From Candidatus Peregrinibacteria bacterium (GTDB taxonomy: Bacteria; Patescibacteriota; Gracilibacteria; UBA1369; UBA12463), in contig JAPLYO010000012.1 in the NCBI GenBank assembly GCA_026395555.1, forward strand, positions 4,817 to 68,816: 64,000 nt of DNA, written 5' to 3'. The first letter of the stretch is position 1; each line of letters begins with the position of its first letter. The translations under genes and the position numbers were made by a program. This document shows positions 12,801 to 17,454 of this stretch, piece by piece. Below the pieces are notes generated by a model. It was not told where the DNA came from and made no database searches. It saw only the letters and a list, made by a program, of their open reading frames with translations.

Positions 12801-13157
12801 AACACCTACGACTGCTACAAGGATGCCCGTGATGCTCAGCTGAAAAAACTTCAGGAAGATGCAGCGCAGCAACAAAAAACCGCACAGGAGGCGGCTCAAA
12901 AAGCCTCAGACGCTAAACGCTCAGCAGCGTTTACTCAGCTCCAGAAAACACTTGCTCAAAAAACATCTAAACTCTCACCGGGGGTATACGCCTTCCTTCC
13001 GATCTGCACTTCTTGTCCATGCGCCTCGGTCATAGATAATACCGGACAGCTCTTACCAGGAGATCGAATTTTTGCGATACTATCTACAAAAGATCATGGA
13101 ACGATTTTGAAAAAAAGTAATGTTATTATTCTGCCAGTTTTACCGACATCGTTATGA
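891..13157 (+). CDS. Giant secreted, cell-wall-anchored mosaic surface protein (about 4,088 aa): Ig-like, FG-GAP/VCBS, Ca-loop, FN3/PKD-like and 3x SLH domains
   Basis: Uninterrupted ORF; the track starts at GTG 834. ATG 891 gives the signal peptide MPHFSLKHSIVAVVLAAFLAVNVAQVPVVFADA and lies downstream of the hairpin at 840-863. Domain motifs are listed as separate sub-features. The ORF ends in TGA and overlaps the next start (ATGA at 13154-13157). Confidence 0.85.
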   Translation: MPHFSLKHSIVAVVLAAFLAVNVAQVPVVFADAISTYSVDEKSSDLGLMGADVKDTRDLVAIVVSEDAWNNSEKYVGLSEKYNDVDKGRLQDRVKRYAEDVQKALPKTNTIIIPVSAAAESVLKVQQVLEKLYLGGQKVNGNATQLSGVVLIGNVPLPVVTKGSQSFISMLPYTDFVEPSYVFDAGLQKYVRSPSAPAAPKAEIWHGVIHPPVAGNEGMKQLAEYLDKNHLYHLGNKDFSDFNKKILYSDLVAESKNMNHASFPRYQQFLKDMEDLVYSRFSAKWLASLQKQFDGATQAATGGDQSKTAAGITDIPDIQTVQPIQSYHITYPELFGTFLNTVTDFATGSGRWSEDDIESIPSLIAKKDAFVMATVRDTNDAIEAKIDAELEAVQKPLPLYHDVTIDGVVRYQNPGKIGLLKSIASTLAGNITSKDYLIGDGKFVFTNNSIIAGIQYVNGVASGDITRAQQCSTYGGSVEGGLGSMVGILQNNGVVSQMVRFIRSLNPLTINVSGATGAAGESDNAKNPGLLPSLGVTTRALSSSEASKLSGGNILHGALVEADKDLNLPAKFAPISLNAGDILLDLDGVTIDEEHPIPSLLQTRSVGEKARVGLYREGKNMSVETPILDANSDALVAGCYGINFTNEQNVIAGKEARRCFPLAATYPTADHAGTTHIASIAGLSDMDRGLSCTSFRGQKQFDTFITEARKYMSDSRDNGPSGLILPNLPTQDPAKILLLDKAKSGILGAPQDFSFQQFLDLQGVMNQQDDNGDYYDTNGNGKVDQIAWIDYNGNGKLDLWVNPNVTGSSVNVVSLPGEDDVLSSLFSKLPASLSVEEYKAKFPQFFQGSKYVGPYTGEFVGGDFGVDDPSELGYGYKAAGTSEAERWSNIQKKYLEIDSPVVYATPRRAPTQQEYRAHLQAMQKNHPSLKIDVLNLLYGGSSCITSGTGCEDELLQIDGLRKSTSDIWMRFTSQKEKDISSVGYHKEPTAATLGAQFKGVLSTALPIDRPRHATFLDKTGLMKTFIYPNAFSVSTYDELIQWRGLSLDQKHTRVMQEYLNPSIDGYVDDSPLGYEAMYFVANGKPTSYSSDFSGEGIVSEDDLEYTTIMGGDNVKGTGSIVASAANGVSIDTQANTSSTSSTESNSQSSSSSKVSGAGTSSDSSDPDVVDIDKWFPAIEKWLDNLKNSFKPLGLSLTDTAGYDALVAPGSPLQSLKLSIPKTNPTIEGDSVVVDVIGFDSKGSLATNDHTSLVRLDVAGLDATPESAKVIPSASDMPDGGVFLSQGYAHFQIVPGKKPQTIVVRARASVSGNTVSSDSVTLKITETDITTGQATSSDALSGVPHSVSVSSENTMLISPAVLPALPQTVAVSLSDISGHRVEGQLASYDITVSGPVSVSGIGDLDPNRPGYQVESMGDPVLVLLTPTATSGEVTISAASSTDDGSPITGTLTLPIRNDLHIDLSSSTSQLKADGTSVAVVTATVRDAGGAITNNFSGPVHFSVDDDHLGTFSSQTPTHFSKGQAVVTLQSATRSGNVSVIVDGSGLASAKTSIGISPLQAASIQIVNGIKTLALATGNNVVVNVVDQYGNLATDNSLPLEVRLTAKTAKYGNLRSANGTLGKSLIIYAQHGTGAFMIQASDTSGPIHIVVSSPGLNGAAQEIITSGQSGNGIISGLNPSVLYASLLGGPFGKVSEKNYLAGAMLFSGKMEAAAALSTDAKPQHNLISIGAYGGVTVYDSAAAVRVLNSGEGEPLRMSLTTSVGKNTVGELIIKRDGKASDYVSMVETEGKAYTFAPAGASNFDGVIRDSDKDLLRIYGAGGVQILDPSITVTLSAASVTTGKFISLDVSSNGNVIATIRVPFDAVNPLALLNAPPTSYQQLPTGVWLINQIHSENYIFEPSYTGFSSGEPSGYKLVSTLTTDVTADDTIGSSSTSLEDAATTSGIGFAGDNKHMLLLAAGNTVGESHKPYPSEIGIILGDPTVRLPSANTSSALGFSMDLGKSIGSITQGAKVLLPLDVNNDGKKDLLVGNEDGSIRYFQYTGGSETYRDRGELLRVKHGIYDAGVADIDGDGDEDIVVATKESCTTKETCVDIYRNNKGTFTRENLGLTIEPDRRVAVLRLVDMNADGVPDLLVSLTNGEIRVFYNDGKGVFEHTGQLIGSFNVSPGQRVLLSANTSIAQSIDTASVPSIANDPTFTSDIHDTFADIFAQPEGSANAMLVYFVANGAASLKGGHVMYRKIEVPAGITTTDAMDKLKGDLSATLSPKDATGTKGDLSAAGKGMGLLINENNKDSNHDGIPDYIDGVLSNPGAAINGVIDKASTAANSVKSTIKKLRCGEGCLPLPVNFAFLAPGPINIKGVAAGDDPVAIPVFGAAGGCTPWPIWPPCPYQNTSQTFRIYVSPTLTGQVGFGICFGGSYKNGQCYAFAPNISFIPEGLCKAVSQKMSAVLKNASSFGSGGGGGSGFTSTIAGGGKKFPSTDTTNKNSNTALLQGYGVETNVAANIRVPGFPAAFTDWIDRQIEEILDKLTDLPDLYLMYPQLSSLGRAVIPQMSSGKIAGYSTFLAWLNSVPLIKIEPKPVLLILPSLTKGQILKLQANLAVWLNDFNLEIFRLKSLFGCDKETKDKHFVDVCGLIDVKSNIIFKKIDDNFRALNAYKEFPKKLLQYRNIEAKYIRQIINYLTTVSQFLGGYVRRQEKRLGAWIDMVTSIKKVLAQWQAVIDITQKYATNCDSCKTERGSLFPMLLNALVNIPAPPIIPFPKWPDIIMDFSRVETGVNIVWPDLTFAPKQILLPTLPSIKFPIDANLLAELGGVNISKITLDLGAAFDSLIPVLPALPSLPSLPNLPDLPPLPTFKLPDIPPAPRIPGLDKIKGVNLKKALASIKDLLEVVCLIKKGYYIVDEDSVKSNLKTMIEQLTQRSLTPPLSIDLEKTVTYPPIKYNAVEQIILRGKLKFEIGTDVIYNTFKSFADDVNSKTTDLVRGVNSLGQNVGNAANTAAKNLQQGAKNVIKSGVDTTKGAIKTGADAVNQQLKNANTGVKNTTTDVNQGIKNKLGSFDPRASQIHLVAEQIPVDISTLPNASQNGDTYSANASGTLSHQLERYLANTSTELSDGLIASSSSNSPLSRYTAQAGESDMALMESPKMVALATGDPSGATAGADTNPPATLSSTMENYAQDVAQPVGIYLSNPATGNAEKLLAYTLETGRDPILSQIDVDNDGDTDVFYSFGGDIYFKENQTKHTSDNFNQIDTSSPMVSSLNDLLPVAGAVTGVSFDDSQRDLITLSWNASGSGVIGYELDTWSIDTDLQKRQYLFPSASGQIPYNAHVVTEEIADSPSLSVSLSLPYGNTYFQIVPLGAKGAKGTPSSVYLFAPQICGNSAPPLSSVEGGVSGDGTAAGATTGEDVRSVALGKTLRINLSGIIDAKSEIVKYYADTDLSKDSNGDGNPENDNDVSSTLPSLEFGPYYKDGDVRVNIFAENAHGTVSQQTLGIRVYVPNIYLKHASTQDGSAQGYISPGEGDVPFALVRERGGSAEIIGDYTTDSVGNFSVSGLQTAGKTVIRNIKNEVVAEYERETGKFHIVKEGYTLRARVSAPGYLATVEVVDPNDVVLASSFAVPDANTDVTIDPTTLSYTPITTKTMKGVHIADRDANDSILLKSIPADDPAYFGGTEVISRDSHGDTRLALVDSSGHILITDSRVSIRLRDVPDMPYAYELLLDSKIIGEIFIATNIPSKPIILDPAEFSVPASTSVEAQVAAIPADSLLPSSNFSDITKGTDLYRAVSVLQNDGIIEGYQENGQQVFKPDQAILRAEYTKIVLKALCIVPRPAAYQSPSPFSDITFSEPPSWFYPFVKESFLLNLITGYVGEKNSSGFSPFKPLSYISRAESVKILIEALRMLRVIRLDTVTAGANDAWYAPFMKVAQDLTPYTIAPTSKSSTKTKESFIVTPVESLSPDYRMTRGDFAIMAARVLNTYDCYKDARDAQLKKLQEDAAQQQKTAQEAAQKASDAKRSAAFTQLQKTLAQKTSKLSPGVYAFLPICTSCPCASVIDNTGQLLPGDRIFAILSTKDHGTILKKSNVIILPVLPTSL
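4530..5852 (+). other. Four tandem bacterial Ig-like (Big/invasin-type) segments within the giant protein (approximate bounds)
   Basis: Segments of about 100 aa with a typical pattern, e.g. LHIDLSSSTSQLKADGTSVAVVTATVRDAGGAITNNFSGPVHFSV...GQAVVTLQSATRSGNVSVIV and IQIVNG..VVVNVVDQYGNLATDNSLPLEVRLT...GAFMIQASDTSGPIHIVVSSPGL. Confidence 0.6.
6925..7360 (+). other. FG-GAP/VCBS (integrin-alpha-like propeller) repeats within the giant protein
   Basis: LLPLDVNNDGKKDLLVGNEDGSIRYFQY; GVADIDGDGDEDIVVATKE..VDIYRNNKGTF; LRLVDMNADGVPDLLVSLTNGEIRVFYNDGKGVF. This is the canonical D-x-D/N-x-D-G-x-x-D-hydrophobic pattern followed by an aromatic residue. A further copy (IDVDNDGDTDVFYSFGGDIYF) sits near 10530-10590. 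Confidence 0.75.
9378..9494 (+). repeat. Proline-rich LPxLP repeat tract inside the giant protein
   Basis: Translates IPVLPALPSLPSLPNLPDLPPLPTFKLPDIPPAPRIPGL. Confidence 0.8.
9855..10052 (+). repeat. Six consecutive 11-residue repeats (amphipathic-helix type) inside the giant protein
   Basis: In register: NVGNAANTAAK / NLQQGAKNVIK / SGVDTTKGAIK / TGADAVNQQLK / NANTGVKNTTT / DVNQGIKNKLG. The period is 11, mostly ending in K, with N/Q/T/G/K-rich composition. Confidence 0.7.
12192..12812 (+). other. Three S-layer homology (SLH) domains near the C-terminus of the giant protein
   Basis: FSDITKGTDLYRAVSVLQNDGIIEGYQENGQQVFKPDQAILRAEYTKIVLKAL; FSDITFSEPPSWFYPFVKESFLLNLITGYVGEKNSSGFSPFKPLSYISRAESVKILIEAL; NDAWYAPFMKVAQDL...SPDYRMTRGDFAIMAARVL. 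These match the SLH consensus (F-x-D-v...a..l...gi..Gy....F.P...itRaE.a.il). A Q/A/K coiled coil follows. Confidence 0.75.

Positions 13158-17454: not shown

Follow-up and report, generated by a model that had tools for sequence, protein, structure and literature searches.

Four Cys-tailed helical proteins encoded behind a giant surface protein in a Candidatus Peregrinibacteria bacterium: a possible disulfide-closed heteromeric stalk

The subject of this analysis is a block of five genes in a 64,000-nucleotide (nt) stretch of DNA from a Candidatus Peregrinibacteria bacterium (GenBank assembly GCA_026395555.1, contig JAPLYO010000012.1, positions 4,817 to 68,816 of the forward strand), which is called the window below and whose positions are used throughout. 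The block consists of a gene for a giant exported surface protein of 4,107 amino acids (aa) at 834..13157 and, directly behind it on the same (+) strand, four genes that we call P1 (207 aa, 13154..13777), P2 (246 aa, 13806..14546), P3 (586 aa, 14558..16318) and P4 (375 aa, 16327..17454). Because gains and losses of cysteines in the C-terminal tails are matched between different proteins, their sequences point to interchain bonds and not to intrachain staples. On balance we lean towards the reading that an interchain disulfide knot closes a heteromeric helical stalk made of P1–P4, and that this stalk is a partner of the giant protein, a putative adhesin.

In the proposed arrangement, P1–P4 would be four distinct exported structural proteins whose C-terminal helices of 67–76 residues would assemble into a parallel heteromeric stalk about 10 nm long, closed at its C-terminal end by tail-to-tail interchain disulfides. 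The heads in front of these helices would carry the specific functions, P1 and P2 having small ones, P3 a multi-domain one and P4 one of about 11 helices. As a whole, the complex would accompany the giant protein, itself pilin-linked and SLH-anchored, in fixed stoichiometry as its base, connector or cap, a role suggested by the linkage of the genes.

Covariation of the C-terminal cysteines

The last cysteine lies 9, 1, 7 and 3 residues before the end in P1, P2, P3 and P4, respectively. Given that a cysteine occurs within the last 10 residues in 7.3% of the about 1,024 putative genes of the source genome (1.2 Mb in 32 contigs), four neighbouring Cys-tailed genes are unlikely to have come together by chance. 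For comparison, 109 stretches from relatives were retrieved, and cysteine conservation was counted over about 95 orthologues per family. An earlier reading of the window made from the sequence alone (the sequence-only reading) had proposed a C-terminal Cys signature for the four proteins, and the signature proved to be conserved: C198 of P1 is present in 91/97 orthologues, C245 of P2 in 94/96 (as the penultimate residue in 94/96) and C372 of P4 in 93/98, and P3 has a cysteine within its final 10 residues in 73/93, with one or both of two tail positions occupied. The second tail cysteine of P4, C363, is found in 58/98. A profile of P2 matched 618 cluster representatives among 1.84 billion proteins, and the best 150 of these metagenome-wide representatives retain the penultimate cysteine in 148 cases. 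The cysteines further upstream are also well conserved, namely C57 and C128 of P1 (97/97), C114 (94/96) and C127 (93/96) of P2, C281, C357 and C381 (93/93) as well as C400, C403 and C435 (91/93) of P3, and C55, C90, C116 and C205 of P4 (91–92/98). The assignment of P4 as a lipoprotein, with C20 of an LVAC sequence as the modified residue, was rejected because C20 is present in only 7/98 orthologues.

Covariation of the tail cysteines was counted over 91 loci, alignment-free where pairs were compared, and is given here in the order both / first only / second only / neither. Four patterns of tail cysteines account for 81/91 loci. The presence of two tail cysteines in P1 coincides with a P3 cysteine in the last 4 residues without exception (49/0/0/42, concordant in 91/91), and the presence of two tail cysteines in P4 coincides with a P3 cysteine at positions −5 to −16 almost as strictly (51/3/1/36, concordant in 87/91). 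The non-partner combinations, including that of the two sites within P3 itself, look independent (about 30/19/22/20). In a phylogeny of P1–P4 from which the tails had been removed, the P1/P3 pair changes six times and always jointly, the joint state needing 6 changes, and all independent contrasts run in the same direction (5/5; sign test p = 0.06, which is the minimum for 5 contrasts). The P4/P3 pair requires 7 joint changes for 6+5 single ones, and non-partner pairs require 9–10. Where two tail cysteines are present, the spacing is 9 residues in P3 (30/30) and in P4 (51/54) and 5 residues in P1 (39/49). These spacings are as expected if P3 and P4 run parallel and in register and the P1 tail bridges their ends. 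Taken together, P1, P3 and P4 have an even number of tail cysteines in 88/91 loci, and P2 contributes exactly one in 90/91. In one family of relatives (f14), C198 of P1 and C372 of P4 have been lost together, and the P2 cysteine and a CxxCPC motif in the tail of the giant protein have been kept.

From these patterns the bonds predicted for the window proteins are P3 C579–P4 C363 and P1 C198–P4 C372, and in other genomes an additional P1 C193–P3 C584 bond would form. The sequence-only reading had described the four proteins as disulfide-stapled. The conserved cysteines in helical proteins that it relied upon are indeed present, but those of the tails do not resemble intrachain staples, as they covary between proteins.

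The same counts bear on the simplest alternative, in which P1–P4 are four functionally independent secreted proteins, the tail cysteines lie in intrachain loops or are free, and the likeness among the proteins reflects the composition of helical envelope proteins in a Cys-using lineage. Many orthologues of P1, P3 and P4 do have two tail cysteines separated by 5–9 residues, for which pairing in the same chain is conceivable, and no significant sequence similarity is found among the four proteins. Independence is nevertheless quite improbable in our judgement: the second cysteine of P1 tracks the last one of P3 and the second cysteine of P4 tracks the inner one of P3, whereas the two sites of P3 vary independently of each other; P2 has a single tail cysteine in nearly all loci and three cysteines in total; and the gene order is invariant.

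In the proposed knot C245 of P2 would have its partner outside the four proteins, most likely one cysteine of the giant CxxCPC tail, or else a second P2 molecule. The motif belongs to a C-terminal tail domain of the giant protein (aa 4046–4099, 12969..13130, + strand) and comprises C4058, C4061 and C4063 (nt 13005–13022), which are kept in 90–91 of 93 orthologue tails. The P2 cysteine is left over, and CxxCPC, with its odd number of cysteines, is the most economical candidate partner for C245. In other orders of the class the giant tail has a single cysteine at the CxxCPC location, so that the count there is still odd. The sequence-only reading had raised the possibility of disulfide links to the Cys-dense core of the giant protein, and we regard the tail as the better candidate for the lone P2 cysteine. 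Covariation between P2 and the giant protein is uninformative, since within the order neither site varies appreciably and other orders yield too few data, and too untidy ones, to be of use.

The terminal domain of the giant protein is a distinct element of about 55 residues with the consensus G.Y...C..CPC....AD.(I/L)PGD..FA.I....SN, conserved in 90+ of the 93 orthologues and placed 3' of the SLH repeats and of a variable coiled coil or acidic spacer. A hidden Markov model (HMM) of this tail matched, within the source genome, solely the giant protein itself.

Both CxxCPC and the C-x4-C and C-x8-C tails resemble metal-binding motifs, and the odd counts could sum to a 4-Cys site. Joint binding of a metal ion or cluster (Zn, Fe-S) by the tails, possibly together with CxxCPC, is still a decidedly unlikely explanation, given that the sites have been gained and lost as independent pairs, not in sets of three or four, and that f14 retains only the P2 cysteine and CxxCPC. 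The proteins are, moreover, extracytoplasmic, and the genome provides for disulfide formation. It contains a DsbA-like gene (PF13462, 70.5 bits, above the cut-off, C4:2356-2859) and a DsbB-like gene (PF02600, 38.2 bits, above the cut-off, C15:16143-16490); a VKOR gene was not found in the source genome. Among its proteins with an N-terminal hydrophobic segment 105 have an even and 70 an odd number of cysteines, compared with 282 even and 312 odd among the rest. In view of the DsbA- and DsbB-like genes and of this even-Cys bias in exported-type proteins, oxidative folding in the envelope is plausible.

Predicted structures and kinship of P1–P4

Each of the four proteins contains a single hydrophobic segment, located at the N-terminus, and none later, in agreement with the signal or anchor segments assigned to all four in the sequence-only reading. 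The structure of P1 was predicted with AlphaFold2 from an input of 60 orthologues, and the model (mean predicted local distance difference test score, pLDDT, 84.8) shows a signal/anchor helix, a disordered linker, a pair of helices of about 24 residues each, a helix of 73 residues and the tail. P2, P3 and P4 were modelled by way of a relative of the same genus (G003), with 39–43% identity, in which the three genes lie in one frame split by single TAA codons. The two TAA stops were read as Gly to give an artificial read-through chain of 1,195 residues, which is not a natural protein, and the chain was modelled with a block alignment of 83 rows. Its terminal helices comprise 67 residues in P2, 73 in P3 (after two short ones) and 75 in P4, with pLDDT of about 80–95, and the linker and Cys-rich middle of P3 were modelled poorly (pLDDT 28–60). 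Helix positions in P2–P4 were mapped by alignment from the G003 orthologues onto the window proteins.

The models show a common architecture for P1–P4, namely a head of variable size, one terminal helix of 67–76 residues and a Cys tail. All four proteins thus combine an N-terminal hydrophobic segment with an end helix of about 70 residues and a cysteine within about 15 residues of the C-terminus, and together with the orthologue counts the AlphaFold2 models uphold the description of P1–P4 as exported-type, mostly helical proteins with conserved cysteines. In P1 the signal/anchor segment is followed by helices 56–80 and 86–109, the long helix 118–190 (nt 13505–13723) and the tail with C198 (nt 13745–13747). 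P2 comprises a signal/anchor segment, a helical head, the long helix 164–230 (nt 14295–14495) and a conserved tail of the form P.KF.DATT..C that contains C245 (nt 14538–14540). In P3 a signal segment precedes a helical N-domain (residues ~53–198) with the motif EIF.NGDL.DSGFDL, a low-complexity linker, the Cys-rich middle (C281–C435), two short helices and the long helix 509–580 (nt 16082–16297), in which C579 is located (nt 16292–16294). P4 consists of a signal segment, a head of about 11 helices that includes C55, C90, C116 and C205, and the long helix 296–371 (nt 17212–17439); of its tail cysteines, C363 lies within the long helix (nt 17413–17415) and C372 directly after it (nt 17440–17442). 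The sequence-only reading had also noted an earlier cysteine that opens a helix in three of the proteins. This describes C127 of P2 and C90 of P4, which lie at helix starts, but C128 of P1 is 10 residues inside the long helix.

The length of the long helix is invariant across the families, being 73–74 residues in 96/97 orthologues of P1 and 67 residues in 93/96 orthologues of P2. Hydrophobic residues recur along it with a period of 3.46 in P1, 3.44 in P2 and 3.52 in P4, close to the value of 3.5 for a heptad.

Conserved residues other than the tail cysteines were also observed in P2 and P3. Y79, H80, N84 and N88 of P2 (14040–14069) and Y196 and H206 (14391–14423) are invariant or nearly so, within the motifs YH...N..FN and AYP.H..Y, a set of His, Tyr and Asn side chains that might make up a binding site. 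In P3 conservation is highest in an acidic segment at residues 172–198 (15071–15151), EIF.NGDL.DSGFDL..DL..IE.ILF, within the confidently modelled N-domain, where E172, S182, D185, D189 and F198 are nearly invariant. In the Cys-rich middle of P3, C400-x-x-C403 (15755–15766) has the family consensus DNCI.CH, which resembles the CxxCH haem-attachment motif; the window protein has CIQCT at this point, so the His is not universal.

According to the sequence-only reading P1–P4 form one divergent paralogous family. Comparison of the four with BLASTP, in all pairs, gave no similarity, and HMMs of the P1–P4 families showed no cross-matches within the source genome. Profiles of the mature parts, from alignments of ~95 sequences, were compared pairwise by hhalign, for which reversed-sequence controls reached a probability of at most 4.5% and a score of at most 24.6. 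The P1–P2 comparison gave a probability of 72.5% (score 34.9 over 107 columns), P1–P3 38% and P2–P3 33%; P3–P4 was marginal (9.5%) and P1–P4 and P2–P4 nil (about 1%). The matches are collinear and C-terminally anchored, and rise above the controls only for the C-terminal ~100 residues. Immediately ahead of the tail, P1 and P3 have a motif qM..YF.[ST]F in common, P2 has fP.KF at the same place, and P4 lacks it. It is possible, from this similarity, that P1, P2 and the C-terminal ~110 residues of P3 share an ancient origin, whereas a kinship of P4 to P1–P3 is unproven. The idea of a single family is thus only weakly indicated for the C-termini of P1, P2 and P3, and P4 gives no signal; the clear common feature of the four proteins is the architecture of the models, and the profile similarity does not extend across all four.

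Searches of the databases did not relate the four proteins to any described family. Pfam, NCBIfam and PHROGs gave nothing better than an E-value of 0.02 for P1–P4, and Pfam gave no match for 60 members of the P3 family. Profile searches of the PDB with all four families produced no credible match and only helical noise, the lone outlier being a hit of the P1 profile on 60 residues from an exocyst helix (E 5e-4, all others 0.016 or worse). Matches to SNAP-25 and syntaxin (E 0.09 or worse) were likewise dismissed as helical noise. Foldseek with the P1 model returned generic three-helix bundles only (best E 0.35). In public records the proteins are named 'hypothetical protein'.

The giant gene and the distribution of the module

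Pfam domains of the types FG-GAP, Ig-like, PDZ and SLH were recognised in the giant protein. Its SLH match (PF00395, 24.2 bits against a cut-off of 20.8) covers residues 3787–3831, near the C-terminus, and about 20 cysteines of the protein are conserved. The giant orthologues have lengths of 3,700–5,000 aa and are encoded directly 5' of P1 in all loci of sufficient length. The literature on Peribacteria and Vampirococcus speaks of large Cys-rich or giant surface proteins in general terms only (PMC4736985, PMC8080830), and no published description of the giant–P1–P4 module was found in the literature.

The order giant–P1–P2–P3–P4 is kept in every sufficiently long locus of the relatives, that is, in 18 loci of a first batch, 20 of a second and 58/60 of a third, the 2/60 exceptions being truncated by contig ends. 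Co-encoding with a giant surface protein in other genomes, which the sequence-only reading had named as a check, is therefore strict wherever the locus is long enough. The block is present in all families of the order, with one copy of P4 found by HMM profile in 146/155 genomes of the order, and P1–P4 are each single-copy families in the source genome. An apparent absence of the module from family f5 was rejected, since the giant gene, P1, P2 and P3 are present there together with a divergent P4 ending in KQC, which occupies the usual P4 slot. Outside the order, variant blocks occur in other orders of the same class, and a P3 profile detected no relative among about 376 genomes from other classes within the phylum. 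What appeared to be a natural P3–P4 fusion of 1,069 aa (L121:2984-6193, G017) is an artefact, the frame crossing a run of N that gives X residues.

Strict co-encoding 3' of the giant gene would also be expected if P1–P4 were dedicated to the assembly, export or folding of the giant protein and touched it only transiently, without being permanent structural subunits, and the finding that no enzyme or known structural family is recognisable in P1–P4 is compatible with such a role. We consider this unlikely: the covalent cross-linking implied by the covariation would be more in keeping with a stable structure than with a chaperone cycle, P1–P4 show no motifs of an ATPase, protease or isomerase, and the helix lengths are strictly conserved.

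The four genes are closely packed behind the giant gene. The open reading frames (ORFs) and C-terminal sequences across 13154–17454 are those given in the sequence-only reading, as is the overlap of the P1 start codon with the TGA of the giant gene in the sequence ATGA, by which the two genes are translationally coupled. Of the distances between the genes, those of 11 nt (P2–P3) and 8 nt (P3–P4) were given correctly, whereas the P1–P2 gap is 28 nt and not 29. A longer ORF from 13695, overlapping P1, is an alternative for P2. A simple consensus scan showed no strong promoter- or terminator-like site on the + strand inside the giant–P1–P4 block, and the count of such sites across the region was not above that in shuffled controls. 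A helix-turn-helix (HTH) gene, uvrA and others that follow 3' of P4 are on the opposite strand and unrelated. Two side observations concern the ends of the block. A strong G+C-rich hairpin with a T-run at 811–858, between the pilin and giant genes, overlaps the listed GTG start (834), and the true start of the giant gene is probably an ATG 19 codons after this GTG (MPHFSLKH...), which opens a typical signal peptide. A 163-aa antisense ORF on the minus strand (16591–17082) lies wholly within P4 and is most likely spurious because P4 is conserved.

A type IV pilin-like gene (310..798, + strand; Pfam N_methyl at 3.1e-9, and T2SSG) lies directly upstream of the giant gene, a second pilin gene is located just before the start of the window, and a GFTLIELL-type pilin gene is found 5' of the giant gene in 9/13 relative loci with enough upstream DNA. 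These one or two upstream pilin genes, and the resemblance of four small genes beside a large propeller-containing adhesin to fimU-pilVWX-pilY1, bring to mind a further explanation, in which P1–P4 are non-canonical minor-pilin-like subunits that prime or tip a type IV pilus and the giant protein is a PilY1-like tip adhesin. The prepilin leader and N-methylation motif of the upstream genes are, however, missing from P1–P4 (Pfam N_methyl matched none of the four even at E up to 1), the models of P1–P4 are helical bundles and not pilin folds, and the SLH wall-binding repeats of the giant protein fit poorly with a retractile fibre. Of the explanations considered we rate this one the least probable.

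Several observations weigh against the disulfide-closed stalk. The phylogenetically independent events behind the covariation are few, at 5–6 per site, so that sign tests cannot go below p = 0.06, and the co-loss of P1 C198 and P4 C372 in f14 is a single event. The hydrophobic period of the P3 long helix peaks at 3.7, with the power at 3.5 still greater than that at 3.6, and the window P3 has Pro and Gly within this helix. Matching insertions in the long helices of P3 and P4 were not seen, their segment lengths varying independently, and the N-terminal segments of P1–P4 may be signals or anchors, cleaved or uncleaved. In favour of the stalk, though weakly and indirectly, the G003 P2–P3–P4 chain has a predicted template modelling score (pTM) of 0.59 although the ordered part of its largest single protein makes up only about 26% of the chain, which hints that the model packs the ordered parts of P2, P3 and P4 confidently together; this argument is one of arithmetic only, and the orthologue chain behind it is artificially fused and was modelled with few paired rows in its alignment. 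Finally, in f26, a family of another order (L133, L134; G067, G085), P2- and P3-like genes directly follow a family-1-type glycosyltransferase gene, have neither a giant gene nor P1 upstream and lack the tail cysteine, so that the P2 and P3 families can exist outside the full module. The sequence-only reading had counted occurrence of the genes without a large surface protein as evidence against itself; it is seen in f26, for the P2- and P3-like genes, and the linkage holds throughout the order.

Significance and comparison with known systems

Much of bacterial diversity belongs to the candidate phyla radiation (CPR), whose members apparently live attached to other cells. To our knowledge, their molecular attachment hardware is almost unknown outside Saccharibacteria. 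As a module, the giant–P1–P4 block occurs in single copy almost throughout an entire order, and no relatives are known for its four small genes. The covariation of cysteines predicts specific bonded residues, by which a cluster of 'hypothetical proteins' becomes directly testable, and if the proposed knot is real, cross-gene covariation of cysteines can reveal complexes in uncultured organisms. The giant adhesin is probably used by these host-dependent bacteria for cell contact. In a wider picture, which we put forward with more doubt than the knot itself, the module might be an undescribed envelope organelle of Peregrinibacteria in which a laminin-like coiled-coil stalk of four proteins with its interchain disulfide knot, a covalent tie of P2 and CxxCPC to the SLH adhesin and dedicated pilins together constitute a host-contact machine.

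Individual features of the module have counterparts in known systems. With the SLH-anchored S-layer-associated proteins of Gram-positive-type bacteria the giant protein shares an SLH repeat, which scores above the Pfam cut-off and lies close to the C-terminal end, and we know of no described SLH protein with four dedicated Cys-tailed helical partners. The operons of PilY1/PilC and minor pilins (fimU-pilVWXY1E type) similarly encode pilins, a large propeller adhesin and four small accessory proteins together, but P1–P4 have neither the prepilin leader nor the pilin fold, and the giant protein is four times bigger and SLH-anchored. The tetrabrachion-type S-layer stalks of archaea are parallel multi-helix stalks that join the envelope to large surface domains, as proposed here; tetrabrachion is, however, a homotetramer cut from one precursor, is far longer, has no Cys knot and shows no homology to P1–P4. 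In the SNARE four-helix bundle, four different proteins each contribute one parallel helix of ~60–70 residues, although that bundle is cytosolic, C-terminally anchored and without disulfides.

The closest parallel to the proposed design is provided by laminin alpha/beta/gamma and by the disulfide rings of fibrinogen. There, several different chains contribute one long heptad helix apiece, the helices run parallel in a bundle that is locked by interchain disulfides at its end, and an odd cysteine is left for a further partner. Unlike those proteins, to which no sequence or fold kinship is detectable, the present system would comprise four bacterial chains of 200–590 aa in a monoderm CPR envelope, with a stalk of about 10 nm whose assembly is deduced from sequences. 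If the reading is correct, P1–P4 would represent a bacterial case of disulfide-locked heteromeric coiled coils, a design known mainly from the animal extracellular matrix.

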